In this document: piece by piece, positions 2,751 through 61,393 of the stretch | Layout: every line of letters starts with the position of its first letter | Numbering within the stretch: the first letter of the stretch is position 1 | Assembly: GCA_036380715.1 (NCBI GenBank) | Contig: DASVEF010000299.1 | Location: 7,520-71,519, forward strand | Reading direction: 5' to 3' | Source of the DNA: Thermoanaerobaculia bacterium | GTDB lineage: Bacteria; Acidobacteriota; Thermoanaerobaculia; Multivoradales; UBA5704 | DNA length: 64,000 nt | Made by a program: the position numbers and the translations under genes | Notes under the pieces: generated by a model | Told to the model about the DNA's origin: nothing | The model's database searches: none | The model's input: only the letters and a program-made list of their open reading frames with translations

Positions 2751-4406
2751 ATGGAAACGCTGCTCGACCTGCTCCTCGGCAACTCGCTCACCCGGCTGGT
2801 CTTCTTCCCCGCGGTGGCGTGCCTGCCGCTGCTCTTCTTCCCGCGCGGCTCGGACCGCCCGGTCAAGATCTACGTGCTGATCGTCTCCCTGATCGAGTGC
2901 GCGTTCGGCCTCCAGTACCTCTTGACGCACCTGGGACCGGACGGCGCGTTCCCCGTGGTCCGCGACCTCGGGCCGGGCGGGGCGAAGATCCCGTGGATCC
3001 CAGGCCTCGGCATCCATTACGACCTGGCCATGGACGGCATCTCCATGCCACTGGTCCTGCTCGGGATCTTCCTGGTGCCGATCGTGCTCCTCGGCTCGTG
3101 GGTCGGCATCGAGCGCCACTGGCGGGCGTTCGGCGCGGCCCTGCTGCTGCTCACCACGGGCGTGCTCGGAGCCCTGCTCGCCTGGGACCTCTTCCTCTTC
3201 TACATCTTCTGGGAGGTCATGCTGATCCCGATGTACCTGCTGATCGGGGTCTGGGGCGGCGAGCGGCGGATCTACGCGGCGGTCAAGTTCTTCCTCTACA
3301 CCATGGCCGGCAGCCTGCTGATGCTGATCGCCATCCTGTGGATGGCGTGGACGTTCCACAATTTGAACGGCGGCGTCTGGAGCTTCGCGTACGAGGACAT
3401 GCTGCGGCTCCAGTTCCCGGTGCAGCAGCAGATCTGGCTGTTCGCGGCCTTCGCGCTGACCTTCGCGATCAAGGTGCCGATGTTCCCCTTCCACACCTGG
3501 CTGCCGGACGCCCACGTGGAGGCGCCGACCGGCGGCTCGGTGATCCTGGCCGGCATCCTGCTGAAGCTCGGCACCTACGGCTTCCTGCGCTTCGCCCTGC
3601 CGCTCTTCCCGCAGGCGAGCGAGGTGGCGCAGCCGCTGCTGGTGACGCTGGCGGTGATCGGCATCCTGTACGGTGCCCTGGTCGCCTGGGTACAGACCGA
3701 CATGAAGAAGCTGGTGGCCTACTCGTCGATCGCCCACCTCGGCTTCGTGATGCTGGGCATCCTGTCCTTCGACCTGGTCGCCTGGCAGGGCGCGCTGCTC
3801 CAGATGGTCAACCACGGCCTGTCCACGGGCGCGCTGTTCCTCCTCGTCGGCATGCTCTACGACCGCCGGCACACCAAGAAGTTCGAGGAGTTCGGCGGCC
3901 TCGCCAAGGTGATCCCGCTGTTCGCCTTCTTCCTGGTCTTCTCCACCCTGGCCTCGGTGGGCCTGCCGATGCTCAACGGCTTCGTAGGCGAGTTCATGAT
4001 CCTGGCCGGGAGCTACCGCGCGCTGGGCTGGCCCGCGGCGCTGTCGACTCTCGGCGTGGTGCTCGCCGCGCTCTACCTGATGAAGATGCTCCAGCTCACC
4101 ATCTGGGGACCTCTGACCAAGGAAGAGAACCGCGGGCTCCGCGACCTGACGGGGCGCGAGATCGCGGCGCTGGTGCCGCTCTGCGTGCTCATGCTGTGGA
4201 TCGGCGTGGCGCCGAACCCGTTCCTCAAGCCGAGCCTGCCGGCGCTGGATGCGACGCTCGCGGAGTTCAGGCAGGGGTTGGAACGGACGGAGGTGGCGGA
4301 GGCGACGCTGGCCCCTCACCCCCCGGCCCCCTCTCCCACCCCCTCCCTGCCATCCGGGAGAGGGGGAGAAAAATCTGCAATGGCCATGACGGGGGTTGGG
4401 CGATGA
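2751..4406 (+). CDS. nuoM: NADH-quinone oxidoreductase subunit M; C-terminal ~30 aa derived from a MITE/REP-like element
   Basis: NuoM/Mrp antiporter-like motifs (WLPDAHVEAPTGGSVILAGILLKLGTYGF). The ORF stays open through the repeat element at 4312-4383, giving the tail PHPPAPSPTPSLPSGRGGEK. ATGA overlap with nuoN. Confidence 0.88.
   Translation: METLLDLLLGNSLTRLVFFPAVACLPLLFFPRGSDRPVKIYVLIVSLIECAFGLQYLLTHLGPDGAFPVVRDLGPGGAKIPWIPGLGIHYDLAMDGISMPLVLLGIFLVPIVLLGSWVGIERHWRAFGAALLLLTTGVLGALLAWDLFLFYIFWEVMLIPMYLLIGVWGGERRIYAAVKFFLYTMAGSLLMLIAILWMAWTFHNLNGGVWSFAYEDMLRLQFPVQQQIWLFAAFALTFAIKVPMFPFHTWLPDAHVEAPTGGSVILAGILLKLGTYGFLRFALPLFPQASEVAQPLLVTLAVIGILYGALVAWVQTDMKKLVAYSSIAHLGFVMLGILSFDLVAWQGALLQMVNHGLSTGALFLLVGMLYDRRHTKKFEEFGGLAKVIPLFAFFLVFSTLASVGLPMLNGFVGEFMILAGSYRALGWPAALSTLGVVLAALYLMKMLQLTIWGPLTKEENRGLRDLTGREIAALVPLCVLMLWIGVAPNPFLKPSLPALDATLAEFRQGLERTEVAEATLAPHPPAPSPTPSLPSGRGGEKSAMAMTGVGR
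4312..4383. repeat. MITE/REP-like element, copy E (half element) inside the nuoM 3' end
   Basis: cccctcaccccccggccccctctcccaccccctccctgccatccgggagagggggagaaaaatctgcaatgg. Confidence 0.7.
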
Positions 4407-5860
4407 CTCGCGGGGATCTGATCAGCCTGCTCCCGGAGATGATCCTCTGCGGCGGCGGCATCGTGGTGCTGCTGCTGGACGCCATCGCTCCGTCTCTGCG
4501 GAGAGGGTTTACAGCGCTGGCTCTCGTCACGACCGGGGCGGCGGCTTGGGGTGCCTGGTACGCCTGGTATGAGGCTCCCTCGGATCCCGCGCTGAGCTGG
4601 AACGGGTTGCTGGAGACGAGCGGGGTCACCTATGCGCTGACGCTGGTGATCCTGCTGGCGACCGGGCTCTGCCTGCTCGCGTCGCAGGGCTATCTGCGGC
4701 GGGAGGGCATCCTCTCGGGCGAATACCACGCCCTGCTCCTCTGGTGCGCCACCGGGCTGGTGCTCATGCTGCGCGCCACCGAGCTGCTGACGGTCTTCCT
4801 GTCGCTGGAGCTGCTCTCGCTCTGCCTCTACTCGCTCGCGGTCTTCCACCGGCGGATTGCGGTGGCGTCCGAGGCGGCGATCAAGTACTTCCTGATGGGC
4901 GCCTTCGTCAGCGCCTTCGTCCTCTACGGCATCGCCCTGGTCTTCGGCGGCACGGGGAGCACCCGGTTCGCGGAGATCGGACAGGCGCTGGCGGGCATGC
5001 CGGAGGTCCCAGTCACGGTCAGCTTCGGCTTCCTGCTGCTGGTCGCCGGCTTCGGCTTCAAAATGAGTGTGGTCCCCTTCCACGCCTGGTCGCCGGACAC
5101 CTACCAGGGAGCGCCGTCGCCGTTCGTGGCGTTCCTGTCCGTGGCGCCCAAGGTGGCGAGCGCGCTGGTGCTCTACCGCCTGCTCGACGCGGTCGTGCAG
5201 GCCGGCGCTCCGAACGTCCAGGTCAAATGGTCCGGCGTGGTGGCCGCCCTGGCGGTCTTCTCCATGGTGGTCGGCAACCTCCTGGCCCTGGTGCAGCGCG
5301 ATATCAAGCGCATGCTCGCCTACTCGGGCGTGGCGCACATGGGCTACCTGCTGCTGGCTCTGGTGACCCTCGACCGGTCGTCGCTCGCTCCGGTGATCGT
5401 CTACCTGCTCGCCTACGTGCTGATGAATGCTGGCGCTTTCGCGGTGGTGAGCATGCTCTACAGCCGGCCGGGCGAGCAGCACCTGATCTCCGACCTGTCC
5501 GGCTGGGGCTACCGCTATCCGCTCCTCGGCGGCTGCCTGGCGGTCTGCATGCTGTCGCTCGGCGGCATCCCGCCGACCGTCGGTTTCGTGGGCAAGTACC
5601 TGGTCTTCCTCAACGCGGTGGGCGACGGGCTGGTCGGCCTGGCGGTCCTCGGCGTGCTGGCGAGCCTCATCGGCGTCTTCTACTACCTGCGGGTGGTGTA
5701 CGTGCTCTACATGCAGCCGGAGGAGCGGCAGCCGGAAGGACTGCTCATCGACTTCTGGGGCCGTGCCGCCGCGGTGCTCGCGGCTCTGGGCACCCTGGTG
5801 CTCGGCATCTGGCCTGGCGGGATTCTGCAGTGGCTACTCGAGACGACCGCAGCCAAGTAG
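4403..5860 (+). CDS. nuoN: NADH-quinone oxidoreductase subunit N
   Basis: 485-aa polytopic protein of the NuoN family (FHAWSPDTYQGAPSPFVAFLSVAPK). Last subunit of the operon order J-K-L-M-N. ATG at 4403 inside the longer track ORF. Confidence 0.9.
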   Translation: MTRGDLISLLPEMILCGGGIVVLLLDAIAPSLRRGFTALALVTTGAAAWGAWYAWYEAPSDPALSWNGLLETSGVTYALTLVILLATGLCLLASQGYLRREGILSGEYHALLLWCATGLVLMLRATELLTVFLSLELLSLCLYSLAVFHRRIAVASEAAIKYFLMGAFVSAFVLYGIALVFGGTGSTRFAEIGQALAGMPEVPVTVSFGFLLLVAGFGFKMSVVPFHAWSPDTYQGAPSPFVAFLSVAPKVASALVLYRLLDAVVQAGAPNVQVKWSGVVAALAVFSMVVGNLLALVQRDIKRMLAYSGVAHMGYLLLALVTLDRSSLAPVIVYLLAYVLMNAGAFAVVSMLYSRPGEQHLISDLSGWGYRYPLLGGCLAVCMLSLGGIPPTVGFVGKYLVFLNAVGDGLVGLAVLGVLASLIGVFYYLRVVYVLYMQPEERQPEGLLIDFWGRAAAVLAALGTLVLGIWPGGILQWLLETTAAK

Positions 5861-6483
5861 CCGACACGGAGGAGGTCTCTCCTCTCACCCTCAACCGGCT
5901 CTCCTTCTATCTGAGGTGCCTGCGCCACCTCCAGGAGACGGGAGTCAAGCGCGTCTCCTCGCAGGAGCTGGCGAAGCGGTACCACCTCTCCGCCACCCAG
6001 ATCCGCAAGGACCTGGCGCAGTTCGGCGAGTTCGGCATCCGCGGCGTCGGCTACGAGGTCGACGAGCTCGCCGATCACCTGAACTCGCTCCTCGGCCTCG
6101 ACCGCAAGCACGCCATGCTGATCGTGGGGATGGGAAACCTGGGGAGCGCCCTCGCCCAGTATCTCGGCTTCAACTACGGCTCCTTCCAGGTGGTGGCCGG
6201 AGTGGACAACGACCCCCGGAAGATCGGCCGCAAGGTGGGGAGCTTCACCGTCCGCTCGGCCGACGATCTGGCCGCCGTGGTCCGGGACTCGGGCGCCGAG
6301 ATCGGCGTGCTGACCGTCCCCGCCGAAGCCGCGCAGCAGAACTACGACGCCCTGGCCGAAGCCGGCATCAAGGCCGTCCTCAACTTCGCCCCCGTCCGCC
6401 TCAAGCGCCGCCACGGCGTCCCTCTCAAGAACGTCGACCTGCGGATCAACCTGGAGGAGCTGGCGTTCTTCCTGCGGGGGTGA
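5830..6483 (+). CDS. rex: Redox-sensing transcriptional repressor Rex
   Basis: Winged-helix N-terminus (LSFYLRCLRHLQETGVKRVSSQELAKRYHLSATQIRKDLAQFGEFGIRGVGYEV) followed by a Rossmann fold (MLIVGMGNLGSALAQY...IGVLTVPAEAAQ). Start uncertain: GTG at 5830 overlaps the nuoN end, and no ATG lies in frame after the nuoN stop. Confidence 0.75.
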   Translation: MATRDDRSQVADTEEVSPLTLNRLSFYLRCLRHLQETGVKRVSSQELAKRYHLSATQIRKDLAQFGEFGIRGVGYEVDELADHLNSLLGLDRKHAMLIVGMGNLGSALAQYLGFNYGSFQVVAGVDNDPRKIGRKVGSFTVRSADDLAAVVRDSGAEIGVLTVPAEAAQQNYDALAEAGIKAVLNFAPVRLKRRHGVPLKNVDLRINLEELAFFLRG

Positions 6484-10698: not shown

Positions 10699-10728
10699 GG
10701 ATCAGGCCGCTTTGCGAGCCCGCTGGGC
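10699..10728. repeat. 30-bp direct repeat, copy 2
   Basis: Identical to 10099-10128. Confidence 0.8.
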
Positions 10729-12471
10729 TGTCAGCGTGAGCGGCCCCACCTTCATCGCGCCGGAGAAGGGGACGGCGAGGACGTAGAAGTCCTCCCCCGT
10801 CCGCCGGACCTCCCCCAGAGGCAGGGCGAGCCGGTTTCCCGGGAGCCCGGAGAGGACGAAGACGATCCGGCGGGTCGCGGCGGGCAGCTCGATCGTGCCC
10901 TGGACGCGCTGGAAGGGCCGGTGCGCCTGGGTGGCTTCCGCGAATCCCTGCTCCGGAACCAGGAAGACGAGAGGGTACTCCGGCAGATACCACTGCAGAT
11001 GCCGCTGCCATGGGCAGAGAAAGCCCTCCGCGCCGGACCCGCCGGTCCCGGACAACTCGACGGCCGCCAGGACGGTGTCCGCCGGGGACCAGGACCGGAT
11101 CGCCTCCAGGGTGCGATCCAGGCCGAGCTCGTACTCCGCGATCGTGCCCTGGTTGAATTCGTGGCGGACGATCGCCCAAGGCTTGGGCTGGTCGGGGCGC
11201 CGGTCGGCGCCGAAGAGGAAGAGGCCGGCTCCAACCATGGCGGCCACCGCGGTCGCGGCGAGCGCTCTGGGCCGGCTGGCGGCGAGGGCCGGAGCCGCGG
11301 CGAGGGCGAGGGCGGTCAGCAGGGCCGGCAGGTGGATCAGGGTGTAGCCGGCCTTGGTAATGTGGAACAGGGCGAAGAAGAGGACCGGCGGCAGCGCCCA
11401 GGCGAGGAGCCAGGAGAGCCGCGAGGCCAGGAGCCGCAGCCCGGGGAGGACCTGCCGGGGCGCGGTCGCCCAAACCAGGAGGAGCGCCACGGCTCCGGGG
11501 AAGATCCCCTGGAGCGCCCACTTCGTCAGGACCTCCACGTTGTGCGCGAGCGCTCCCCAGCCCGCGCCGTAGAGGACGGAAGTCTGCGGCAGCAGGGTTC
11601 CGAAATGCGCGGTGCTGATCCGCCGGTAGGCCCCGTAGCCGCCGGCCAGCAGGCAGAGCGGCACGAACCAGGCGAGGACGAGCGCAACGCCGAGCGCGGC
11701 GCCTCCAAAGAAGAGGCTGGGCGTCAGCCTCCCCCGCCGCCAGGTCCGGAAGAGGCCGAACAGAAACAGGGGGGCCAGGAGCACCAGGGTCGACTGGCGG
11801 AGCCCGCCGGCCACGGCCATCAGGGCGCAGGCCAGAAGAAAGGCCCGCCGGCTCTCGCTCATCCGCAGCGCTCCATAAGCGACGGCGACGCTCAATCCCC
11901 CTTCGAGGGCATAGATCAGCGGCAGCTCGCCGTAGAACCAGAGGAGGGGGTTGAAGGCGTATAGGACACCGGCGAAAGCGGCGGCCGGGACCCTCACCCC
12001 CTGGCCCCCTCTCCCATCCGCACTCCCGCCGCCCGGGAGAGGGGGAAACGCTCTCCGAGAGGCTCTTCCGAGCCAAGCGAAAATCTGCCTCCCCCCTCTC
12101 CCGGGAGGGTGTGAGTGCGGATGGGAGAGGGGGGCCGGGGGGGTGAGGGTCCCGGCCCGGCCCGTCAGCAAAACGATGCAGGCGGCTCCCAGGGCTCCTC
12201 CGAGGATCGCCAGGGCCACCATGCCGTGCAGGGGGTCGAGGCCGAGGGCGGCGAGGAGCTTCAGGATTCCGATGTAGAGAGGATAGCCGGGCGGGTGCGG
12301 ATGGTGGGCCGCGAGGTCGTACCGCTCCACGCCGAGAGCGAACTGGATGGAGTCGTGGTCCCACATCCGCCGGGCGGCGAAGGGGACGCGGATCAGGAGG
12401 GCGGCGACGGCCGACCCGAGCGCGATCCAGCGCAGGCGGGGGTCGGCCGTCATCGAGGGCTCGGAGCGCAA
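10702..12471 (-). CDS. GT-C fold membrane glycosyltransferase (PMT/ArnT family 39/83-like), with a MITE/REP-like element inserted in frame
   Basis: Polytopic protein with the N-terminal loop motif WDHDSIQFALGVERYDLAAHHPHPPGYPLY (D-x-D plus the aromatic/proline loop of GT-C enzymes). Residues ~110-165 (TPPAPLSHPHSHPPGRGGRQ...GGQGVR) are encoded by the repeat element at 11991-12149. Confidence 0.65.
   Translation of the reverse strand: MRSEPSMTADPRLRWIALGSAVAALLIRVPFAARRMWDHDSIQFALGVERYDLAAHHPHPPGYPLYIGILKLLAALGLDPLHGMVALAILGGALGAACIVLLTGRAGTLTPPAPLSHPHSHPPGRGGRQIFAWLGRASRRAFPPLPGGGSADGRGGQGVRVPAAAFAGVLYAFNPLLWFYGELPLIYALEGGLSVAVAYGALRMSESRRAFLLACALMAVAGGLRQSTLVLLAPLFLFGLFRTWRRGRLTPSLFFGGAALGVALVLAWFVPLCLLAGGYGAYRRISTAHFGTLLPQTSVLYGAGWGALAHNVEVLTKWALQGIFPGAVALLLVWATAPRQVLPGLRLLASRLSWLLAWALPPVLFFALFHITKAGYTLIHLPALLTALALAAAPALAASRPRALAATAVAAMVGAGLFLFGADRRPDQPKPWAIVRHEFNQGTIAEYELGLDRTLEAIRSWSPADTVLAAVELSGTGGSGAEGFLCPWQRHLQWYLPEYPLVFLVPEQGFAEATQAHRPFQRVQGTIELPAATRRIVFVLSGLPGNRLALPLGEVRRTGEDFYVLAVPFSGAMKVGPLTLTAQRARKAA
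11991..12149. repeat. MITE/REP-like nested palindromic element, copy D (full length, variant core)
   Basis: Termini ccctcaccccctggccccctctccc ... gggagaggggggccgggggggtgaggg. Inserted in frame in the GT-C gene. Confidence 0.75.
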
Positions 12472-17645: not shown

Positions 17646-19820
17646 TCAATTCAGCGGGGAGCGGCCGAGCAGGTGGCGCTCGAGCCAGGAGATTTCGGTG
17701 AAGAGCCGGGTCCGCTTGTGCGAGGGCTTGCGGAAGATGTGCCCCTCGCCCGGGTAGATCAGCAGCTCGACCGGCACGCCGCGCCAAGCCAGAGTGCGGT
17801 ACATCTCCTCGGCCTGCTCCGGGCCGTCGAATTCGCCGAACGTGATCAGCGTCGGCGTCTTCACCTGGCCGGCACGGCTGCTGGGCGACTCGTCCTGGTA
17901 GCGGGCAGGGTCCTCCCAGGGTGGCCGGCTCCGGTAGAAGCCTTCGGCCCAGAAAGCGCCCCGCGGGGAGCCGGCGACCATGGAGACGTCGTTCCAGCGC
18001 CCCGCCCCGGACACGGCGGCGCGGAACAGGCCGCTCCGGCCGATCAGGCAGTTCGTCAGCCCTCCCCCGCCGCTGTACCCCGTAACCCCCACCCGTTCGC
18101 GGTCCGCCCAGCCCAGGGCCAGCAGGTGCTCCACCCCGGCGATCACGTCAGCCGACGGACGCGAGCAGCGGTGGCCCTCCAAGGCCTGCCCGAAGGCGTC
18201 TCCCCGGCCGGCGCCGCCCCGGAAGTTCGGGGAGAGCACCAGGAATCCCCGGGAGGCCAGCAGGCCGGGATAGGAGGCGAAGCTCCCGCCCACGGACACG
18301 GTCTCCACGCGCGCCACGCCGAAGGGACCGCCATGGAGATGGACCACCAGCGGCAGCCCCTTCTCACCCTTGCGGCCCGGTGGCCAGAGGAGCACGCCCT
18401 CGATCGTGTCCCCCTCACGATTCTTCCAGGAGATCGTCTCCACCTCCGGCGCGGGATGGCGGTCGAGAGCCGCGTTGAAGCTCGTCAGCGCCCGCGCCGC
18501 CGCCATGCCGTCCGGCCCGTCCGCCAGCCAGATCTCGGGGAAACGCCGGTCGTAGCGCACGAAAGCGATCCTCCGCCCGTCCCGCGACGCCGTGAGCAAC
18601 TCGGTCATGCCACGGTGGTCGGCGAGGGTCTGAACCCGTCCGCTCGCGGGCTCGATCCGGTAGATCCGCGTCCGAGTCGAGACCAGGGCCGTCGCCAGGA
18701 TGGAGCCGCCGGCGAGGGGGACCGCCTCCAGGACGCTCCCCTCCAGATCCGGCGCGACCCGCGCGATCCCGCCGCCGGGCTCCACGCGATAGAGCCGTCC
18801 TTCGGTGGTGGTGAACCGTCCATCCCGCTCCTCCCCGGAGCCTGTGATCAGGAGGTCGCGGCCCGCCCAGAGCACCCGTTCCTCATAGACCCAGTTGCGG
18901 GTGCGCACCGGAGCGACCGCCTCCGGTCCCAGGGGCAGGACGGAGACCTCCCACTCCCTGACCGGGCCGTAGGGGCTCCCCGCTCCGAAGGCGATCCGGC
19001 CCCCGTCGGGAGAGAGATGGATGCTTCCCGGATTTGGCTCGGCCGATGCGAGGGGGACGGCGGTGCCCGTGGCGAAGTCGGCCCGGGCCAGCCGGTAGAG
19101 AGTGGTCCCGGGATCGGGGAGCTCGGGAAGGCGGCGGACGTCGCCGTAGATCCGGCGCCTCTCGCGGCCGGCCTGCAGCTCCGTGCCGGTCGGCGGGGTG
19201 ACGGCCGAGAGGACGACTCCCGAGCCGTCCGGCAGCCAGTCGTGGGAGAGGATCCCGGACTCGAAACGGGCGGGATCGGTCACCCGCCGCGGCCTACCCT
19301 CCAGTGGATCGAGGACCGAGAGCTGGGGCGCCTCCGGGGTGGAGAGGAACGACAGGAGCTTCCCGTCGGACGACCACCGGAGCTCCCGGAGGGCCGCCGG
19401 CTCGACGGCGAGGCGGACGGGCTTCGGCGCTCCGGGCGCCGCGAGGTCGATCCACCAGATGGCGTGCTCCTCCACGTCGCGGGCCGGGTCGTCCCTGCGA
19501 GCGATGAAGGCGAGCCGGTTGCCGTCCGGGGAGAGCGCGACCTCGAGGAAGGCGACCTCCGCGAGCCACTCTTCGATGGAATAGCCGGAGGCCGGAGGGA
19601 CGAGAGACAAGGCGGCGAGAAGGAGGGCCGCGAAGAGGACTGTCCTCGCCCGGGCGCGGCGCGGGCCCTCACCCCCGTCCCCTCTCCCGAAGGGAGAGGG
19701 GTGAAAGCTCTGGAAAAAGCTCAGAAGACCGCGATTTTCTCTGCAATTTCCCCCTCTCCCTCCGGGAGAGGGGGCCAGGGGGTGAGGGCTCAGCGGAACG
19801 GCCTTACGCCTTTGAAACAA
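17646..19820 (-). CDS. S9 family serine peptidase (prolyl oligopeptidase/DPP-like) with N-terminal TolB-like beta-propeller; start uncertain
   Basis: Catalytic Ser in GYSGGG; C-terminal alpha/beta hydrolase; beta-propeller repeats. The first ~55 codons of the ORF are a MITE/REP-like element (LSPHPLAPSPGGRGG...). The true start is probably near the signal peptide VLFAALLLAALSLVP, but no clean start codon was found. Confidence 0.75.
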   Translation of the reverse strand: MFQRRKAVPLSPHPLAPSPGGRGGNCRENRGLLSFFQSFHPSPFGRGDGGEGPRRARARTVLFAALLLAALSLVPPASGYSIEEWLAEVAFLEVALSPDGNRLAFIARRDDPARDVEEHAIWWIDLAAPGAPKPVRLAVEPAALRELRWSSDGKLLSFLSTPEAPQLSVLDPLEGRPRRVTDPARFESGILSHDWLPDGSGVVLSAVTPPTGTELQAGRERRRIYGDVRRLPELPDPGTTLYRLARADFATGTAVPLASAEPNPGSIHLSPDGGRIAFGAGSPYGPVREWEVSVLPLGPEAVAPVRTRNWVYEERVLWAGRDLLITGSGEERDGRFTTTEGRLYRVEPGGGIARVAPDLEGSVLEAVPLAGGSILATALVSTRTRIYRIEPASGRVQTLADHRGMTELLTASRDGRRIAFVRYDRRFPEIWLADGPDGMAAARALTSFNAALDRHPAPEVETISWKNREGDTIEGVLLWPPGRKGEKGLPLVVHLHGGPFGVARVETVSVGGSFASYPGLLASRGFLVLSPNFRGGAGRGDAFGQALEGHRCSRPSADVIAGVEHLLALGWADRERVGVTGYSGGGGLTNCLIGRSGLFRAAVSGAGRWNDVSMVAGSPRGAFWAEGFYRSRPPWEDPARYQDESPSSRAGQVKTPTLITFGEFDGPEQAEEMYRTLAWRGVPVELLIYPGEGHIFRKPSHKRTRLFTEISWLERHLLGRSPLN
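19666..19789. repeat. MITE/REP-like element, copy B (full length; reverse-complement orientation of copy A)
   Basis: ccctcacccccgtcccctctcccgaagggagaggggtgaaagctctggaaaaagctcagaagacc...ccctctccctccgggagagggggccagggggtgaggg. The core is near-identical to rc(copy A). Confidence 0.8.
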
Positions 19821-19824
19821 ACTC

Positions 19825-20343
19825 TCAGCCTCGCACGAACGTCCCGCGCTCCGTATCCTTGCGGACGCCGGGGAACTTCAGGGCGCGGCCGTGCGCCACG
19901 CAGTAGACCCCCGGCGGCAGGATGCCGGTGGCGAAAATCGCCTCGGTCAGGTTCTGCAGGGCGTCGGACTGCTTCATCTCGAACGGGCGCATGGCCCCGG
20001 TCAGGACGATCGGGATGCAGGGATCGGGAATCTCGGCGAGGAGGCAGTCGCCGGTCATGGCCAGCCGGTCGGTGCCGTGCAGGACGACGATGCCGGTCAT
20101 CTCGCCCCCCTCCCCTTCCGCACCGATCGCCTTGACCATCTGGACGACCCGGGCCCGGTCCTGGTCCGTCATGTCCAGGCTGTCCTTGCTCATCAGCTCG
20201 AGGACGCTGACCTCGGTGTCCTCCAGCCGCAGCTCGGAGAGCATCCGCCGCACGATCGAGCGCCGGTTGGCCAGCTCGCCCGACAGCTCGTCATAGGTTT
20301 TCTCGATGGTTCCGCCGGTGGTGATCAGGGTGATTCTGCGCAC
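19825..20343 (-). CDS. Asparaginase-domain protein (N-terminal type-I L-asparaginase fold only)
   Basis: TGGTIEK threonine-nucleophile motif at the N-terminus. 172 aa, so short form. Confidence 0.65.
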   Translation of the reverse strand: MRRITLITTGGTIEKTYDELSGELANRRSIVRRMLSELRLEDTEVSVLELMSKDSLDMTDQDRARVVQMVKAIGAEGEGGEMTGIVVLHGTDRLAMTGDCLLAEIPDPCIPIVLTGAMRPFEMKQSDALQNLTEAIFATGILPPGVYCVAHGRALKFPGVRKDTERGTFVRG

Positions 20344-21122: not shown

Positions 21123-21485
21123 TCACGGTCCTTCCCGCTCCCGCCCGATCCAGTAGTTGAGCGCCACGGCGATCCCCTTGCGGTGCGGCAGCGACAGCCC
21201 GATCACCACGACGGCCGCGATGCCGATCACGATCTGGCCCAGCCAGACCCACTCGGGGCGGACCAGGAACATCAGGACCACGAAGGAGCCGGTCAGCCCG
21301 GCTGTGGTCATGTACATGAAGAACCAGGTGTCGCCCGGCTCGCGCTCGAAGCGGAACCCACACACGGTGCAGGCGTCGCGCAGGTGATGCCAGCCGTCGA
21401 AGAGCCGTCCCTCCCCGCAGCGGGGGCAGCGGCCCCGGAAACCCCGGAGCACGGCCTGCCGCAAGCTTTTGGGACGGTTCGTCAC
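21123..21485 (-). CDS. DUF983 zinc-ribbon membrane protein
   Basis: CPRCGEGRLF...CTVCGF (CxxC-x17-CxxC) followed by two TM helices. 4-bp overlap with the upstream TIR-STAND gene, so co-transcribed. Confidence 0.7.
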   Translation of the reverse strand: MTNRPKSLRQAVLRGFRGRCPRCGEGRLFDGWHHLRDACTVCGFRFEREPGDTWFFMYMTTAGLTGSFVVLMFLVRPEWVWLGQIVIGIAAVVVIGLSLPHRKGIAVALNYWIGREREGP

Positions 21486-24400
21486 CCGGGCAGCTTAGAA
21501 CAGGTCTTGCGGTAGGAGAGCTGATCGCCCACGTGGTGCGACCACTCCTCGAGGGTGAGGTTGCGCCCGACCGTACGGCAGGCGGCGTCGATCAGCTTGT
21601 CGAGCTGAAGCGACCAGAGGCGGGCGGTGCCGTCGCCGCTCGCGCTTGCCAGGCTCTGGCCGTCCGGGCTGAAGGCCAGGCTGTAGACGTTGTCCCCGTG
21701 GCCGTGCAAGACGAGCGGCCGGACGTCAGGTTGTTCCAGGTCCCAGAGGCGGACCGTGCGGTCGCGGCTCCCGCTCGCCAGGCGCTTGCCGTCCGAGCTG
21801 AAGACGGCCACCGTGACGCTGTCGTCGTGGCCGGAGAGGACGACCGGGGCCGGGGAGGGGGTCTCCAGGCTCCACACCCGGATGGTCCGGTCGTCGGCGG
21901 CCGTGGCCAGGCGGTGACCGTCCGGGCTGAAGGCCATGCCGTGGACGACCCCCTCGTGCCGGCCCACGTCGACCGCCGCAGTCGAAGGCTTCCCCACGTC
22001 CCACAGCCGGACGTCGCCTCGCCGGGTTCCGGTGGCCAGACGCTTGCCGTCGGGGCTGAACGCGACGGTGACGAAGCTGTCTCCCTTCCGTGAGAGCACG
22101 ACGGGAGCCGCGGTCGGAGCTTCCACGTTCCACAGGCGGACCTCCGCGTCCTCGCTGGCGGCGGCGATCCGGCGCCCGTCCGGGCTGAAGGCGAGGTCCA
22201 CGACCCTCTGTTCCCTGGGACCCTGGAGGACAAACGCCGAGCTCTCGTCCTCGAGGCTCTCGACACGGACGGTGCCCTCCCGGTTGCCGATCGCCACGCG
22301 GCGGCCGTCCGGGCTGAACGCCACGCTCTCGATCTGCCCCATCCAGAAGGAGTGATCCACCGCGGGAGTCTCCGGGTGGCGCAGGTCCCAGACGCGGGCG
22401 TGCCCGTCCCAGCTCGCGGTCGAGACGCGCCCGCCGGTCCGGTCGAAGGCGACCCGCACGACGCGTCCGCCGTGCCCTCCCAGCACGACCGGCTCGGTCT
22501 CCCGGTGCTCCAGGCTCCAGAGTCTCGCGAAGCCGTCCGAGCTCCCGGTGGCCACCCAGCGGCTGTCCGGGCTGAACGCCAGGCTCACGATCGTGTCGTC
22601 GTGGCCGCGGAGCGTGGCGGTCAGGCGGGGAGTCGAAATATCGACCTTCCACAGCCGGAGCGTGGCGTCCTCGCCACCCGTGGCCAGCCAGCGGCCGTCC
22701 GGGCTGAAGGCGAGGATCCGGATGTCGTCCTCGTGTCCCAGCAGAGGGAACGGCTCGCCTCCGCCCTCGGTCCCCAGGAGATAGACCGTGCCGTCCCAGC
22801 TCCCCGTGGCCAGACGGCGGCCGTCCGGACTGAACGCCACGGCGCGGAAGGGGTTCTCGTGCCCGGTCAGGAAGCGGCTGTCGCGCACGCCCGCGGGGTC
22901 CCACAGGCGGACCGTGCCGTCGTCGCTTCCAGACACCAGGATGCTGCCGTCCGGGCTGAACACCAGCACGCCGATGTTGCCCGTATGGCCGGCGAGGACC
23001 ACGGGGGCGGACTGCGGCTCGGCGGTCTTCCAGACCCGCACCTTGTGGTCCCGGGCGCCGGTCGCCACCAGGCTGCTGTCCGGGCTGAAGGCCAGCGCTT
23101 CGATCTCTCCTTCGTGACCCGAGAGGATGGTGGCGGCAGGCTCCGCCGTCGTGAGATTCCAGAGGCGGGCCTTGCGGTCGTCCCCGCCGGCCGCCAGCCA
23201 GCGGCCATCGGCGCTGAAGGCGACCATGCGCACGGGACGCTCGCCGGCGGCGAGGACGCGGGGATGCGCCGAGGGGTTGCGGGAATCCCAGACGCGGACC
23301 GTGCCGTCTTCCCCGCCGGAGGCGAGTTGCGAGCCGCCGGGGTTGAAGGCCAGATCCTTGACATCCCCCTTGTGACCGCCGAGCACCGCGGGCGCGCTCC
23401 CCGGCTGCGCCACGTCCCAGAGCCGCACGGTACCGTCCTCGCTCGCCGTGGCGAGGCGGCGTCCGTCCGGGCTGAAAGCGACTTTCGTGACCCCTGCCTG
23501 GTGGCCAGCCAGGGGGATCGAGCCCGCCACCTTCGCCAGAGTGTGCCGCAACGCCTCCTCGCCGAGGGCGGTCTCCAGCCCGATCTCGCGCTTCAGGGCG
23601 ATGGACTCCAGAGCCAGGAGGAGGCTGCGTTGTGGCGTGTCCTCGATGCCGGTCACCGCCTGGGCGGCGAGCTGGCGCACCAGGGCGGTACGGCCCTGCA
23701 GCTTCGCCGTCTGGCGCTGCAGGAAGGAGACGACGGCCAGGGCCGCGGCGACCAGCCCGACGGCGGCGAGCAGGATCGAGAACCGGCGCATCCGGGCGGC
23801 CGCCTGTCTCTGCGTCTCCTCGCGGGCCTTGGCCTCCTCGGTGAGGCGTTGCGCCGCAACCAGCTCGCGCTGGCGCTGCGCCTCCTTCTCCGCCGCCTCG
23901 CGGTCACGGAGCGCCACGCTCGCGGCGACGAATCCCCGCTCCAGCTCGTTCACCTCGCCGGCGCGCTTCTCCACCAGCTCCTGCGCCGCGGCGAGCTGGG
24001 CGCCGCGCAACAGGCTCCCCTCGTCCTGGCCGAGGCGCAGCCACTCCTCAGCCTGTTCGGTCAACCGGCGCTGGATGCGCAGGGCGGCCCGCCCCTCCTC
24101 GATCCAGCCGCGGAAGCGGGGCCAGTTGCGGATCAGCGCCTCGTGCGACACGTCCACCAGCTCGTCGCCGCTCGCCGCGTCGCGGCCGGTGGTGAGCAGC
24201 CGCGCCTCGGCCAGCCGGCCGACGACCGACTTCAGCTCGGCGTTCTGTCCGGGCAGCTCCTTGAAGCGGGCGCGGCGGCGCGTGTCCTCCGTGCCCTCGC
24301 CGGGCTGCACCAGGCGCAGCAGGACGCGGCGGGCCATCTCCTGCTCGCCGGGCGAGAGCTTCTCCAGCTCCTCCTCCGCCCGCCGGGCGATGGCGCCGTG

Positions 24401-25717
24401 CACGCCGCCGATCGCCGCGTAGGCCTCGTGCGTCAGGCGCCGCCCTTGCCGGCGCTCCCACAGCTCGAGCAGCGCGTGCTCCAGGAGCGGGAGAGCCCCG
24501 GGCTGGCCAGACAGGTCCTGCAGGATGGCGTCGGGCAGCCCTTCCTCCATCTCGAGCCCGACCTGGAGGGCCGGCCCTTCGATCGCCTGGCGCAGCTCGC
24601 TCTCCACCATCGGCGAAACCAGCACGTGGCTGTCCGACATGCGGTCGGCCAGTTGGGGATAGGCCGCGGCGCGGGCGTAGAAATCCGCCCGCATGGTGAC
24701 CACGACCACCGTGCGCCCCTCGGCCACGTTCGCCGCGTACAGCAGGTTGTCGAGGAAGCGCTGCCGCACCTCTTCGGACGGGCAGAGAGTGAACACCTCC
24801 TCGAACTGGTCGACCACGATCACCACCCGGCGCCGCTCGTCGCCCCCGGTCAGGGCGAGCCGCACCGCGGAGTGGAGCGCCTTGTCGCTGACGCTCAACG
24901 TCTCCTGGAGCTGCAGCAGGGTGGCGACCCGGCCGCCTTCGGGATCGAGGACCGGCGCCAGTTGGACGGCCAGCTCGTCGAGCGGCTGCGAGCCCGGCTT
25001 CATGACCAGCACGGGCCATGAGTCGCTGCCCGGCAGCGCGCCCTGACGCAGCGTCGGGACCAGGCCGGCGCGAACCACCGACGACTTGCCGCTGCCCGAC
25101 GGTCCCAGCACGGCGAGGAAGCGGCTCTGGCGCAGCCGCTCCACCAGCCACTGCGTGAGCGCCTCGCGGCCGTGGAAGAAGCGGGCGTCCTCCTCGTGGA
25201 ACGCGGCGAGACCGCGGTAGGGGCAGACGCCGATCTCCGCGACCTCCCCTTCGGAAGGGCCGGGCGGGAGGCCGCGGACGCCGCAGATCAGACGGCGGAA
25301 CGCGTCCTCGTCCGCGAAGCCGTTGCGGAAATCGACCCAGGTGACGCGGCTGAGGAAACGCGGCAGCCGTCCCCGCTCGGGCATCACGGCGCCCTGGAGC
25401 AGCACCGGGATGACCCGGTACTCGGGGGACTTCACCCGCTCGTCGAGGGCCGCCCGCATCTCCTCGTTCTCCCAGGCGCCCAGCCCGTGCGGGCCGAGGA
25501 AAACCGCGCAGGTGATGCTCTCGTCGAGCGCCCTCTCCAGAGCCTCCTGCCAGACCTCGCCGGGGACGAGGTGCCACTTGTCGAGGAACGGCTGCACCCC
25601 GGCGTCGCGCAGCCGCCGGGCCAGCTCCTCCACGAGCGGCTTGTCCGCGCTGTGGTGGCTGAGGAAGACGTCGTAGCGCTTCGCGGGGGCTGCTGCCGGA
25701 GCCGTGGCGGTGCTCAT
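21482..25717 (-). CDS. TIR domain / STAND P-loop NTPase / transmembrane helix / WD40-repeat protein (1411 aa)
   Basis: N-terminal TIR (YDVFLSHHSADKPLVEELARRLRDAGVQPFLDKWHLVPGEVW). STAND N-terminal helix motif GVCPYRGLAAFHEEDARFFHGRE plus Walker A VLGPSGSGKSSVV. Predicted TM segment FSILLAAVGLVAAALAVVSFL. At least 14 WD40 blades (recurring GH...VRLWD/VRVW). Confidence 0.85.
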   Translation of the reverse strand: MSTATAPAAAPAKRYDVFLSHHSADKPLVEELARRLRDAGVQPFLDKWHLVPGEVWQEALERALDESITCAVFLGPHGLGAWENEEMRAALDERVKSPEYRVIPVLLQGAVMPERGRLPRFLSRVTWVDFRNGFADEDAFRRLICGVRGLPPGPSEGEVAEIGVCPYRGLAAFHEEDARFFHGREALTQWLVERLRQSRFLAVLGPSGSGKSSVVRAGLVPTLRQGALPGSDSWPVLVMKPGSQPLDELAVQLAPVLDPEGGRVATLLQLQETLSVSDKALHSAVRLALTGGDERRRVVIVVDQFEEVFTLCPSEEVRQRFLDNLLYAANVAEGRTVVVVTMRADFYARAAAYPQLADRMSDSHVLVSPMVESELRQAIEGPALQVGLEMEEGLPDAILQDLSGQPGALPLLEHALLELWERRQGRRLTHEAYAAIGGVHGAIARRAEEELEKLSPGEQEMARRVLLRLVQPGEGTEDTRRRARFKELPGQNAELKSVVGRLAEARLLTTGRDAASGDELVDVSHEALIRNWPRFRGWIEEGRAALRIQRRLTEQAEEWLRLGQDEGSLLRGAQLAAAQELVEKRAGEVNELERGFVAASVALRDREAAEKEAQRQRELVAAQRLTEEAKAREETQRQAAARMRRFSILLAAVGLVAAALAVVSFLQRQTAKLQGRTALVRQLAAQAVTGIEDTPQRSLLLALESIALKREIGLETALGEEALRHTLAKVAGSIPLAGHQAGVTKVAFSPDGRRLATASEDGTVRLWDVAQPGSAPAVLGGHKGDVKDLAFNPGGSQLASGGEDGTVRVWDSRNPSAHPRVLAAGERPVRMVAFSADGRWLAAGGDDRKARLWNLTTAEPAATILSGHEGEIEALAFSPDSSLVATGARDHKVRVWKTAEPQSAPVVLAGHTGNIGVLVFSPDGSILVSGSDDGTVRLWDPAGVRDSRFLTGHENPFRAVAFSPDGRRLATGSWDGTVYLLGTEGGGEPFPLLGHEDDIRILAFSPDGRWLATGGEDATLRLWKVDISTPRLTATLRGHDDTIVSLAFSPDSRWVATGSSDGFARLWSLEHRETEPVVLGGHGGRVVRVAFDRTGGRVSTASWDGHARVWDLRHPETPAVDHSFWMGQIESVAFSPDGRRVAIGNREGTVRVESLEDESSAFVLQGPREQRVVDLAFSPDGRRIAAASEDAEVRLWNVEAPTAAPVVLSRKGDSFVTVAFSPDGKRLATGTRRGDVRLWDVGKPSTAAVDVGRHEGVVHGMAFSPDGHRLATAADDRTIRVWSLETPSPAPVVLSGHDDSVTVAVFSSDGKRLASGSRDRTVRLWDLEQPDVRPLVLHGHGDNVYSLAFSPDGQSLASASGDGTARLWSLQLDKLIDAACRTVGRNLTLEEWSHHVGDQLSYRKTCSKLPG

Positions 25718-25870: not shown

Positions 25871-26092
25871 ATGAAGACAAAGCTGACTGTCACCATCGAT
25901 GAGGAGCTGATTCCCAAAGCGAAGCGCTACGCCCGGCAACGGGGAATCTCTCTCTCCCAGCTCATCGAGACGTCGCTGCGGAGCACCACGGAAGGGGAAG
26001 AAACCACCTTCTCCCAGCGCTGGAGGGGGAAGTTCGAACCGGCCAACCGCGATGACGAGCGCTACAAGGCTCTCGCGAAGCGTTACCTGTGA
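25871..26092 (+). CDS. vapB: VapB-type antitoxin (DUF6364-like)
   Basis: 73 aa. MKTKLTVTIDEELIPKAKRYARQRGISLSQLIE is the typical small antitoxin pattern. ATGA overlap with the PIN gene. Confidence 0.65.
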   Translation: MKTKLTVTIDEELIPKAKRYARQRGISLSQLIETSLRSTTEGEETTFSQRWRGKFEPANRDDERYKALAKRYL

Positions 26093-26505: not shown

Positions 26506-26507
26506 TC

Positions 26508-26561: not shown

Positions 26562-26584
26562 TGTGAAGGTCCGTTCGCGCGGAA

Positions 26585-39380: not shown

Positions 39381-40108
39381 TCCTCGCTTGGTGGAACGGC
39401 CTCACTCTGCCGGATAACATTGTCCGGATCGATCCCGACGACGCCGGCTTCCTCTACGGCGACGGCCTGTTCGAGACCCTGCGCGTCGACCACGGCCAGG
39501 CCCTGGACGTCGAAGCCCACCTGGACCGCCTCTTCGCCGGCTTCCCCCGGATCGGGATCGACATCCCCGAGGACCGGGAGATGCTGGAGCGCGGCATCGC
39601 CGCGGTCGCCGAGCAGGCCCCCCGTCCGGTGTCACGCTTGCGGATTACGGTCACCCACGGCGCCGGCGCCGAGCCCACTCGGCTGATCCGGGCGGTCCCC
39701 TATTCACCCCCCGGCGAAGGGATGTACCGGAACGGCGTGCCGGTGATCCTCCTTCCCGACTTCCGGGTCGATTCGCAGAGTCCCCTCGCCGGGCTCAAGA
39801 GCCTCTGCTATCAGATGAATCGCCTGGCACTCCTCCGTGCGGAGGCTGCGGGGGCTTTCGATGCCCTGCTGCTCAACGAGCGCGGGCTCCTGGCAGGTGG
39901 ATCGAGGAGCAATGTAATCCTGACCCTCCCCGACGGCGTCTTCACCCCTCCGTTGGCGGATGGCTGCCTTCCGGGGACCGTGCGGCGGCGCCTCTTAGAA
40001 AAGGGAAAGGTTGTTGAGCGGTCGCTGACGCCCGAGGATCTGGAGAACGCGAGGGAGGTTTTTTTAACGAACAGTCTGATCGGGGTGCTGCGGGCCCTCA
40101 CCCCCTGA
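39377..40108 (+). CDS. pabC: Aminodeoxychorismate lyase (class-IV aminotransferase fold)
   Basis: GTG start overlapping pabB. DGLFETLRV...SNVILTL motifs of the PabC/IlvE fold. Confidence 0.75.
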   Translation: MILAWWNGLTLPDNIVRIDPDDAGFLYGDGLFETLRVDHGQALDVEAHLDRLFAGFPRIGIDIPEDREMLERGIAAVAEQAPRPVSRLRITVTHGAGAEPTRLIRAVPYSPPGEGMYRNGVPVILLPDFRVDSQSPLAGLKSLCYQMNRLALLRAEAAGAFDALLLNERGLLAGGSRSNVILTLPDGVFTPPLADGCLPGTVRRRLLEKGKVVERSLTPEDLENAREVFLTNSLIGVLRALTP

Positions 40109-55693: not shown

Positions 55694-55837
55694 CGTCTAC
55701 TCCTTTCCGGATGACCCGCCTCGGGGAGGGGGCGCCCGTCACCACCTATAACAATACACCCGGGCTAAATTTTCCCCTCCGCCCAAATAGACGAAAAAAC
55801 TCCGGGAAGGTTCCGGAGGCGAGGCACCGGCAGCCTG

Positions 55838-55925
55838 GGGTTGAAACCCCAGGCTGGATTGTTTCGCTCCTGCGGAGCGCCTCCCCCGCCCGGAGGGCGA
55901 TACAGCCCAGCCTGGGGTTTCAACC
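55838..55925. other. Two near-identical tandem stem-loops (agcctggggttKaaaccccaggc), ~60 bp apart
   Basis: cagcctggggttgaaaccccaggctgg and cagcctggggtttcaaccccaggcct. Downstream of the minus-strand ATPase gene, upstream of the DUF4126 gene. Confidence 0.5.
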
Positions 55926-55931
55926 CCAGGC

Positions 55932-58410: not shown

Positions 58411-58568
58411 CCCCTCACCCCCCGGCCCCCTCTCCCATCCCCTCCCCCCAACCGGGAGAGGGGGAGAAAGACGGGATAAAAGCTCGGTAGATCGCCGTCT
58501 TTATAGGAGTTCCCCCTCTCCCGGAAGGATGGGAGGGGGTGGGAGAGGGGGCTAGGGGGTGAGGGGCC
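58411..58568. repeat. MITE/REP-like element, copy C (full length, variant core)
   Basis: cccctcaccccccggccccctctccc...gggagagggggctagggggtgagggg. Spans the M24 gene 3' end and the region upstream of the ATPase. Confidence 0.75.
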
Positions 58569-59796
58569 AGGCCCGCGGATCGAGCTCGTACGGCAGCGGC
58601 GTCAGCGTCTCCAGCCCGTCCGCCGTCAAGTGGACCAGGTCCTCCAGCCGCACGCCGTAGCCGCCTTTCGGGTCGGGATCGTAGAGGCCGGGCTCCAGGG
58701 TGAAGACGTCTCCTTCGCGGAGCACCCCTTCCGCGCCGGAGGCCTTCTTGAAGATCGGCTGCTCGTGGAGGTCGAAGCCGACGCCGTGGCCGAGGTTGTG
58801 GACGTAGCCGCGGGTCGTGCCGGGCGAGGAGATCGGGGTGAGGTAGCCCTCGGCGGTGAGGAGCGCGCAGACGGACTCCTGGAGGTCCCAGCCCCGCGCT
58901 CCCGGAACGGCTCGCGAGCGCGCCCGCTCCAGCGCCTCGCGGACCGCGGCGTGGGCGCGGGCCAGAGCCGGCGAGGGCGATTGACCTGGAAGGGGGACGC
59001 AGAAGGTGCGGGTACAGTCGGCGAAGAGGGCGCCGCGCGGGAAGACGTCTACGACCAGCGACTCGCCGGCGCGGAGGACCCGCTCCTGGGTGCCCGTCGA
59101 ATGGGGCACGCCCCCCTCCTCGCCCGGCGCCACGAGGTTCCCCTTCGGCTGCTCCAGGCCGTGGCGGCCGAGGACCTGCGCCACCTCGGCGCGCAGGCGC
59201 GCGATCCGCAGCGGCTCCCCTTCCAGCCAGAGCTCTCCAGAACGGACAGTGGCAGCAGCCAGCAGCCGGGCCACGGCGCGGAGGGCCTCGCAGGTCCCCT
59301 CGGCCGCGGCGCGGATGCCGGCCACCTCCCGGGGGGTCTTACGCTTGCGCACGGCGAGGAGCAGCGCGTTGCCCGGCACCCAGGTCCACCCCTGGCGGGC
59401 GAGACGGGAGCAGGCGGCCTGGATCACCCCGGCCTGCCCGTGACCGGCCAGGGCGACGCGCCCGGGGCGGACCCCCGAAGCTTCCAGGGCCTTGGCCGCC
59501 ACCCAGGCCATCTGCTCCTCGGGCTCGATGGCCTCGCTGGACCGCCGGGCCAGGCCGAGCGCTTCCGGAGTGATCAGCTCGAGGCCGGTGGCCGCGGCCT
59601 CGTCGCGCTCCATGGGAGTGTGATAGGCGAGATGCGCAGATCCATCCCGGGGAGCCACGAGCTGGCACTCCCCGAGGTGGACGGAGCCGACGAACGCGGC
59701 GAGGTCGGGGTCCTGCGAGGACCGGGCGAGCACGAGCAGGGCTTCACAGCCCATCTCCGCGAGCCCGGCGGAGAGATCGGCGAGGCGGCCCGCCAT
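58552..59796 (-). CDS. M24-family Xaa-Pro aminopeptidase/creatinase-like peptidase
   Basis: Creatinase-type N-domain plus pita-bread domain with YVHNLGHGVGFDLHEQP metal-ligand motif. The last ~5 codons come from the repeat element. Confidence 0.8.
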   Translation of the reverse strand: MAGRLADLSAGLAEMGCEALLVLARSSQDPDLAAFVGSVHLGECQLVAPRDGSAHLAYHTPMERDEAAATGLELITPEALGLARRSSEAIEPEEQMAWVAAKALEASGVRPGRVALAGHGQAGVIQAACSRLARQGWTWVPGNALLLAVRKRKTPREVAGIRAAAEGTCEALRAVARLLAAATVRSGELWLEGEPLRIARLRAEVAQVLGRHGLEQPKGNLVAPGEEGGVPHSTGTQERVLRAGESLVVDVFPRGALFADCTRTFCVPLPGQSPSPALARAHAAVREALERARSRAVPGARGWDLQESVCALLTAEGYLTPISSPGTTRGYVHNLGHGVGFDLHEQPIFKKASGAEGVLREGDVFTLEPGLYDPDPKGGYGVRLEDLVHLTADGLETLTPLPYELDPRAWPLTP

Positions 59797-61150: not shown

Positions 61151-61267
61151 GGACGAGGAGCAGGCCTAGAGGACGGGCGGGGCCGCGGCGGGGGAGTCTA
61201 GCAGATTGCCCCGGCCGGATGCGCCGGGCTCAGACGGTGTTTCGAAGTGGGGACGCGCTCCGCTGAG

Positions 61268-61393
61268 CCCTCACCCCCTGACCCCCTCTCCCGGAGGGAG
61301 AGGGGGAAAATGCATAGAAAACAGTAGTCTTCTGAGCTTTTTCCAGAGCTTTCACCCCTCTCCCTCCGGGAGAGGGGCCGGGGGTGAGGGCCC
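61268..61393. repeat. MITE/REP-like element, copy A (full length)
   Basis: ccctcaccccctgaccccctctcccggagggagagggggaaaatgcatagaaaacagtagtcttctgagctttttccagagctttcacccctctccctccgggagaggggccgggggtgaggg. Provides the last ~14 codons of rimO. Confidence 0.8.

Follow-up and report, generated by a model that had tools for sequence, protein, structure and literature searches.

Among 64,000 nucleotides of contig DASVEF010000299.1 from a Thermoanaerobaculia bacterium of the Acidobacteriota, referred to here at their full length as the window, a short nested palindrome recurs in six places, and several of its copies are read in frame into protein-coding genes. What kind of element this is, and how it has come to reside inside genes of its host, are the questions that the locus raises. 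An earlier note on this DNA regarded the copies as a family of miniature inverted-repeat transposable elements (MITEs) or REP-like repeats that is active or was so until recently. The six copies are present, and what that note missed is that their terminus is an already described motif, known as BoxC, PIT or TM_ECO (PMC4666352). On balance, we consider it likely that the window repeats are a high-GC variant of this family (the G+C content of the window is ~69%), non-autonomous and spread in a manner resembling that of REP/REPIN elements.

Repeats of the BoxC/PIT/TM family first came to light in the 1990s, BoxC reportedly through the work of Bachellier in that decade and PIT through that of Hoyne and Maher in 2000 and 2002, and neither their function nor their means of spread has been found so far. 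The same arms are now seen far beyond Proteobacteria and Cyanobacteria. Their in-frame presence within essential genes, with shifted stop codons, is relevant to gene annotation in high-GC metagenome-assembled genomes (MAGs), and the conservation of the arms while neighbouring codons drift makes the question of function testable.

Architecture of the module and its identity

Direct reading of the window located all six copies (6/6) at the coordinates collected in Table 1. The terminus pattern CCCTCACCCCC-N4-CCCCTCTCCC has nine matches in the 64-kb window, against 0.02 expected from shuffles, and the hairpin pattern CCCCTCTCCC-N3-25-GGGAGAGGGG has 10, against 0 expected; a blastn search of the window with the copies brought up no further full copy beyond the six. 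The underlying unit is a module of ~35-55 nucleotides (nt), made up of a C-rich third arm, CCCTCACCCCC, a spacer of 2-4 nt and a hairpin, CCCCCTCTCCC-loop-GGGAGAGGGGG. The third arm repeats one arm of the hairpin in mirror image (GGGAGAGGGGG and GGGGGTGAGGG), a symmetry by virtue of which the single-stranded module could form either the hairpin or the hairpin together with a third strand; the folding tools used here model Watson-Crick pairs only. The long first loops of the window modules are rich in C, and the same long-loop type occurs in other Acidobacteriota loci (L043, L044, L047, L053, L090, L092 and L098).

Modules are found singly or as palindromic doublets, arms outward, around a core of 45-50 nt that differs from one family to the next. 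The left and right halves of a doublet are inverted copies of each other, long loops included, and the description as nested palindromes was therefore accurate. The four full copies measure 124-159 bp, have inverted ends of 35-55 nt and no coding capacity, and as single strands each folds to one long hairpin (energies between -46 and -71 kcal/mol, z-scores between -7 and -12). Among the window doublets the cores are mutually unrelated, copies 3 and 6 excepted, and were not found in other loci beyond chance; copy 3 (19666-19789) is ~93% identical to the reverse complement of copy 6 (61268-61393). Rfam gave no match above the gathering threshold on the repeat copies, and its sub-threshold matches in the region of copies 5 and 6 were nearly all generic miRNA-hairpin models, with one flavivirus stem-loop. 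The G strand of the module satisfies the G3+N1-7 rule; a quadruplex has been ruled out by NMR (nuclear magnetic resonance) for the E. coli oligonucleotide (Holder 2015, PMC4666352).

A full-text search with 11-mers of the module returned eukaryotic papers only, whereas Holder et al. 2015 (PMC4666352) could be traced through the 10-mer GGGGTGAGGG. The E. coli BoxC repeat was found anew under the name PIT element (Hoyne & Maher) and later once more as the intrastrand triplex motif TM_ECO, defined as 5'-CCCTCNCCC-N3-6-GGGNGAGGG-N3-GGGNGAGGG and represented in E. coli by copies such as CCCTCTCCCTGTGGGAGAGGGCCGGGGTGAGGGC; strain MG1655 has 23 copies, five of them as inverted pairs, 262 proteobacterial genomes together hold 3610, and G/C-rich relatives are abundant in cyanobacteria (PMC4666352). 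The isolated strand forms a stable triplex in vitro, for which there is no evidence in vivo, and in E. coli the element is always intergenic, with neither promoter or terminator activity nor a link to transposons; TM sites are tied to raised local variability between strains (PMC4666352).

Once loops of 3-22 and 3-7 nt are allowed, all nine window modules fit the TM_ECO order of blocks, against 0 expected. With the region of copy 6 as query (61255-61405), blastn matched 1284 of 5426 E. coli genomes at 82-84% identity over ~47-50 nt of the left module. Read directly, the BoxC between hrpB and mrcB of MG1655 is CCCTCTCCC-tgt-GGGAGAGGG-ccgg-GGTGAGGG ... CCCTCACCC-taa-CCCTCTCCC-tcaa-GGGAGAGGG.

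Copies within genes and the fate of their sites

The gene for NuoM (2751-4406) has no stop codon ahead of the solo module, and solved NuoM homologues finish near residue 518 of 551, from which it follows that the tail, ...ATLAPHPPAPSPTPSLPSGRGGEKSAMAMTGVGR and its stop, is encoded by the element plus spacer. Most of this 31-residue tail comes from copy 1, and the nuoM stop still overlaps the nuoN start (ATGA, with nuoN from 4403). Copy 2 contributes 53 in-frame codons to the GT-C glycosyltransferase, at about residues 108-160, in a segment that varies among orthologs; the earlier note was right that the insert is in frame, although its size, given there as 55 residues, has to be corrected to the 53 codons that 159 nt supply. 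In the AlphaFold model this insert is a disordered loop: the mean predicted local distance difference test score (pLDDT) of the protein is 77, and residues 107-156, with pLDDT 43-54, are flanked by confidently predicted helices at 80-106 and 157-172. NCBI annotates the gene as one protein, insert included (P0121), and P0121 and P0241, which are encoded on a 93.8-kb contig, are 100% identical to the GT-C and NuoM open reading frames (ORFs) of the window, respectively.

Other copies set the ends of genes. The M24 peptidase gene (58552-59796, minus strand) takes its TAG stop from the right-module spacer of copy 5, and the last ~13 codons of rimO (61352-62719, minus strand) lie inside copy 6 together with the TGA stop (61352-61354), which falls at the junction of hairpin and core. 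The gene for a pabC-like class IV aminotransferase (39377-40108), with its TGA stop in the spacer of copy 4, is a fifth affected gene that had been overlooked. Thus, the claim that the repeats are read in frame into coding sequence holds for the NuoM tail, the GT-C loop and the rimO and M24 stops. It does not extend to the N terminus of the HerA-like protein, which had also been placed within an element: a GGAGA ribosome-binding site precedes an ATG at 58367, 43 nt downstream of copy 5, so that the upstream TTG inside the element marks a spurious extension of the ORF. That gene starts and ends become ambiguous was well observed, as witnessed by the stops inside elements and by the S9 peptidase gene (17646-, minus strand), in which there is no in-frame ATG, GTG or TTG between copy 3 and the signal peptide. 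A related observation concerns the GT-C orthologs P0141 and P0146, which have module-encoded peptides at their annotated N or C termini (e.g. PLPSPARGRGAGGEG and SPHPRPLSRERERGAG) and suggest that gene ends mis-set because of the repeat are common in Thermoanaerobaculia MAG annotations.

Comparison of orthologs indicates that these segments come and go. GT-C orthologs of 57-74% identity include some in which the site is empty (e.g. P0124, P0127 and P0152) and others with a half module at the position of the window insert (P0122, P0123, P0126 and P0134); at the DNA level, the half module on the P0122 contig and the right module of the window share an identical 27-nt stretch, GATGGGAGAGGGGGCCAGGGGGTGAGG, and the site on the P0124 contig is empty. 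At the nuoM site, five of the 120 closest orthologs have a solo module, three have partial remains, two have a different, short-loop doublet and 110 have nothing. In a neighbour-joining NuoM tree the solo carriers fall in one clade, mixed with empty sites, and the doublet carriers in another place, beside an empty relative, a distribution that implies at least two independent gains and several losses in nuoM. Since many orthologs lack the inserts, these are the product of insertion or deletion rather than conserved protein segments, which is the outcome that the earlier note had anticipated. No target-site duplication was seen in the GT-C comparison or in two nuoM comparisons of filled with empty sites, the junctions being blurred by divergence to the extent that a duplication of 2 nt is possible. 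The nuoM and GT-C inserts must be old, because they are common to species whose orthologs are just 69-83% identical; with their arms conserved as well, the notion of an active or recently active element is not borne out.

The conservation was quantified on four nuoM genes whose proteins are 75-83% identical. The columns of the module that are invariant in all four species number 10/10 in the third arm, 11/11 in the left arm and 11/11 in the right arm, compared with 10/18 in the loop, 31% in the downstream spacer, 59% in the flanking coding sequence and 39% at third codon positions. The invariance of all 32 arm positions has a probability of ~5e-8 given the flanks. Since the third arm of a solo module lacks a Watson-Crick partner, maintenance of the hairpin alone does not explain its conservation. 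The retention of all three arms indicates that the sequence is maintained at the level of DNA or RNA, by selection or by homogenisation, and does not simply decay.

Distribution, spread and competing explanations

The module is far from unique to the window. A scan for the exact 21 specified bases, with one genome per GTDB species, found at least 116 stretches, and the matches listed come from at least 10 phyla: Chloroflexota (~50), Gemmatimonadota, Acidobacteriota, Cyanobacteria, Armatimonadota, Proteobacteria, Planctomycetota, Spirochaetota, Bacteroidota and Latescibacterota. Among these listed matches the spacer consensus is YRRC, and 117 of the 128 exact hits have the complementary arm within 60 nt; since this partner was not part of the query, they are true homologues and not low-complexity noise. 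The forms counted across phyla were 198 solo modules, 24 arms-out doublets, 11 tandem pairs, five long hairpins and one arms-in doublet, the arms-out doublet being the common composite form. In Oscillochloris MAG loci (L030, L048, L074, L099 and L109) an arms-out doublet of ~108 nt is present in multiple copies, its core, GAGTCGGATGCGTCCTGNTGCGGAATCT, being conserved, and is embedded in further inverted repeats whose flanks are mosaic and BIME-like. Of 50,697 phage records none matched the module, and plasmid records did so in 18 cases only; 42 stretches of IMG/VR matched, some with many copies, and may be host DNA. Two viral-labelled contigs (27.9 and 35.7 kb; L207 and L203/L206/L210/L212) hold at least seven modules each, and may be either misassigned host DNA or repeat-carrying phages.

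A gene that might mobilise the module was sought in several ways. Pfam and NCBIfam models recognised no transposase, integrase or HUH protein in the scanned ORFs, which comprise most large ORFs of the window and are ordinary chromosomal genes; a search for the HUH/Y1 motif had no match in the 116 genome loci or in the window itself, and a single match, loose and unconvincing, in the 42 viral loci. A parent insertion sequence with these termini was sought without success in the window, in ~1.2 Mb of loci that carry modules and in the intervals between distant inverted pairs. Where two inverted modules are 0.4-6 kb apart, no transposase could be recognised between them, as judged by eye from the longest ORFs, which resemble genes for aconitase, an aminotransferase, a phage tape-measure-like protein and others of that sort. 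All-against-all clustering of the 2340 ORFs of the 116 loci gave no module-linked family.

We also examined subclass-2.1 RAYT/TIRYT genes as partners. A consensus of this subclass retrieved more than 8000 Y1 proteins, from which 80 metagenome loci were taken, and the candidate was rejected: the module occurs in none of the 80, and their ends are GGGGTCAGGTCTTG. As an observation in its own right, these genes (L117-L196) are flanked by inverted repeats beginning with GGGGTCAGGTCTTG, located ~45-55 nt before the gene and 20-45 nt after it, which provide a concrete consensus for the published GGGGWSAS motif; the terminal inverted repeat derived from the 80 loci is GGGGTCAGGTC.

At orthologous sites modules have come and gone with no target-site duplication to be seen, and a doublet can be copied as a unit, as both the 93% identity of copies 3 and 6 and the multi-copy doublet of Oscillochloris attest. 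In the explanation that we favour, the modules would be non-autonomous structured repeats of the REP/REPIN kind, and a trans-acting factor would probably copy them in a step that depends on their structure as single strands. Copies inside ORFs would be translated passively, as linkers rich in Pro, Ser, Gly and Arg, with stop codons shifted as a result. Passive translation is suggested because modules are mostly free of stops (open reading frames in 44/60), the ORF-internal copies are 72 and 159 nt long, each divisible by three, and the translated modules, which are indeed of this composition, are located in variable tails or in the disordered loop.

Several points weigh against assigning the repeats to BoxC/PIT/TM_ECO and against mobility. 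The strict loop limits of TM_ECO are exceeded, apart from one incidental nested match: if the arms are taken as 11 nt, the second loop measures 2-3 nt, and the first is 17-19 nt in five of the nine modules, a mismatch for which we file the window repeat as a variant rather than as TM_ECO in the strict sense. Window pairs have their third arms outside, around the 45-50-nt core, whereas those of E. coli BoxC are central, with a spacer of ~17 nt; and window copies lie inside ORFs or over stop codons, whereas those of E. coli are reported to be always intergenic. The source genome is covered by the 64-kb window only. The orthologs in which the arms proved invariant were picked for a still recognisable module, and reinsertion at a hot spot or gene conversion could yield the same invariance. 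No mobilising enzyme is known, neither here nor in the literature, and mobility is deduced from presence, absence and duplicated copies, no recent insertion having been caught.

The classical MITE, a deletion derivative of an insertion sequence with a DDE transposase that moves by cut and paste through its terminal inverted repeats, would account for full copies that are short, non-coding and bounded by inverted ends, and for the multi-copy Oscillochloris doublet with its conserved core. Against it stand the filled and empty sites of GT-C and nuoM, where no target-site duplication was found, the excess of solo modules over doublets (198 versus 24), the unrelated cores and the fact that no transposase was found, be it in the window, in the loci sampled or within widely spaced inverted pairs; an identical set of 32 arm bases recurs across at least 10 phyla, unlike the terminal inverted repeats of insertion sequences, and in E. 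coli there is no transposon link (Holder 2015, PMC4666352). With no target-site duplication, no transposase and no RAYT found, the MITE label of the earlier note is unsupported, and we regard this explanation as very unlikely. A REP/REPIN system proper, in which hairpin repeats with a single-stranded tag are copied by an HUH tyrosine transposase (RAYT/TIRYT) present once per genome, matches several of the features: the hairpin has a conserved 5' extension that is unpaired, doublets are inverted, clusters are mosaic, no target-site duplication was seen and the apparent copy density is high, at ~1 per 10 kb. The outer arm GGGGGTGAGGG moreover contains GGGGTGAG, which fits the GGGGWSAS of TIRYT inverted repeats (PMC3733652; PMC6006769), to be compared with the subclass-2.1 repeat GGGGTCAGGTC derived here, and in-frame REP insertions are known for subclass 2.4 (PMC6006769). 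The arm orientation is reversed relative to TIRYT ends, however, and the GTAG or CGTC tetranucleotide tag at the foot of the hairpin, by which REPs are defined (PMC3733652; PMC6006769), is not present in the module. The window yielded no Y1 gene, and the 158 module-bearing loci none that convinces. E. coli contains BoxC and is not known to have a RAYT besides the REP-specific one, which also counts against such a system. The likeness to TIRYT ends may serve as a lead only; with the module in 0/80 RAYT loci the TIRYT link is unproven, and a REP/REPIN system in this narrower sense seems unlikely.

A further alternative invokes function rather than mobility. A cis-acting element of DNA or RNA, kept by host selection, would explain the three arms invariant within nuoM of four species, unpaired third arm included, the same sequence across phyla, the contact of four of the six copies with the stop codon of the upstream gene, the position of copy 3 at an apparent rearrangement junction and the linkage of TM sites to local genome variability (Holder 2015, PMC4666352). 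It is difficult to reconcile with the patchiness among close orthologs (~110 of the 120 NuoM orthologs lack the module) and with the occurrence of both orientations relative to transcription; copies inside an operon and inside an ORF disfavour a role as terminator, and the E. coli work found neither promoter or terminator activity nor a triplex in vivo (PMC4666352). We hold such an element, whose candidate roles would be mRNA 3'-end protection, intercistronic control, a signal for replication or recombination or a site for a universal factor, to be very unlikely. A broader conjecture, which we would rate as quite unlikely, is that the BoxC/triplex module is a pan-bacterial structured element whose three arms, the unpaired one among them, are kept by selection. 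If it were true, the hairpin-plus-third-strand fold would be functional in vivo or a conserved partner would recognise the module, either a family of enzymes acting on single-stranded DNA common to at least 10 phyla or a universal host molecule, and copies within genes would be maintained and not merely tolerated. An idea suggested by the letters is that the arm CCCUCACCCCC resembles the 3' end of 16S rRNA, UCACCUCC, and its complement, GGGGGUGA, an extended Shine-Dalgarno sequence. We nevertheless prefer to see in these repeats a non-autonomous variant of BoxC/PIT/TM_ECO with REP/REPIN-like spread.

Features of the window and comparison with known repeats

Table 1. Repeat copies in the window, with their parts and flanks
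Feature	Coordinates	Strand	Parts or location
Copy 1, solo module	4313-4366	+	inside 3' end of nuoM (2751-4406)
Copy 1, third arm CCCTCACCCCC	4313-4323		spacer CGG(C)
Copy 1, left arm	4327-4337		
Copy 1, loop, 18 nt, C-rich	4338-4355		
Copy 1, right arm GGGAGAGGGGG	4356-4366		
Copy 2, arms-out doublet, 159 nt = 53 codons	11991-12149		inside GT-C/DUF2723 gene 10702-12471 (-); left module ~11991-12045, core 12046-12091, right module 12092-12149
Copy 3, arms-out doublet	19666-19789		modules 19666-19701 and 19751-19788, core 19702-19750
Copy 3 flank, 40 nt	19790-19829		~68% identical to copy 6 flank 61228-61267
Degenerate, truncated module relic CCCCTCACCTCCCCGGCCCTCCTCTCCCC (7th)	36638-36664	+	5' end of FG-GAP/ASPIC gene
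Copy 4, solo module, 6-nt loop	40095-40136	+	spacer TGAC
Copy 5, arms-out doublet	58411-58568		modules 58412-58464 and 58513-58565, core 58465-58512
Copy 6, arms-out doublet	61268-61393		modules 61268-61306 and 61355-61390, core 61307-61354
Copy 6 flank, 40 nt	61228-61267		homologous to 19790-19829

The homology between the flanks of copies 3 and 6 indicates that the duplicated unit reaches past the doublet on one side. Including this common flank (~68% identical), the two copies constitute inverted repeats of ~165 nt that bracket 41.4 kb, and recombination between them would invert the intervening segment. Copy 3 itself lies between a truncated asparaginase ORF (19825-20343, minus strand) and the S9 peptidase gene, whose start it obscures; the asparaginase ORF, of 172 residues, matches the type I asparaginase model at positions 1-152 only, out of 337, and the region 19666-20343 has the appearance of a rearrangement junction.

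Elsewhere in the window, an Acido-Lenti-1 RNA (RF01687) was recognised on the plus strand at 55834-55879, in the interval that separates a DUF4126 gene from the 3' end of the HerA-like gene, with 42.5 bits against a gathering score of 37. The stretch 26000-30900 is of lower GC (0.63-0.64 versus ~0.69 elsewhere) and may be an acquired island; it contains a PIN-domain gene (26089-26505) and a gene (27212-30901, minus strand) whose product of 1229 residues combines AMP-binding, carrier and aminotransferase domains. A protein of 1411 residues, in which an nSTAND1 NTPase domain occurs together with many WD40 repeats, is encoded at 21482-25717 (minus strand).

Set beside known systems, the repeats have in common with MITEs that they are small, non-coding and multi-copy, with terminal inverted repeats; unlike these, the window repeat comes without target-site duplication, no parent insertion sequence was found and solo half-units predominate. 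The Rickettsia palindromic elements, reportedly described by Ogata et al. in 2000 as in-frame insertions in genes, are similar with respect to location: they too are palindromic, in frame in loops or at the ends of conserved proteins, variable among orthologs and translated. Their sequence is unrelated, and they are said to be AT-rich, 100-150 bp long and restricted to Rickettsia, whereas the inserted unit can here be as small as ~51 nt.

With REP, REPIN and BIME sequences the module shares short, densely spaced hairpins, inverted doublets that act as one unit, clusters of mosaic composition, the absence of target-site duplication and lineage-specific subfamilies. It differs from them in having no GTAG/CGTC tag and no cognate transposase gene that could be found in the window or the sampled loci, and in a sequence that is common to many phyla, REP families usually being specific to a genome or genus.

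The closest relationship is to BoxC/PIT/TM_ECO, with which the window repeats share three blocks in the same order and of nearly the same bases (CCCTCTCCC, GGGAGAGGG and GGGTGAGGG), a single T in the third arm, variable loops, dispersed copies that are solo or in inverted pairs, the lack of a transposase and a patchy occurrence between relatives. The arms are of 10-11 nt in the window and of 9 nt in E. coli, and an acidobacterial host phylum and a breadth of at least 10 phyla are absent from the account of TM_ECO (PMC4666352). What is new, then, is the acidobacterial variant with long arms and long loops, the arms-out doublet as a general composite form, insertion inside genes, the distribution over at least 10 phyla and the conservation of the arms in place.

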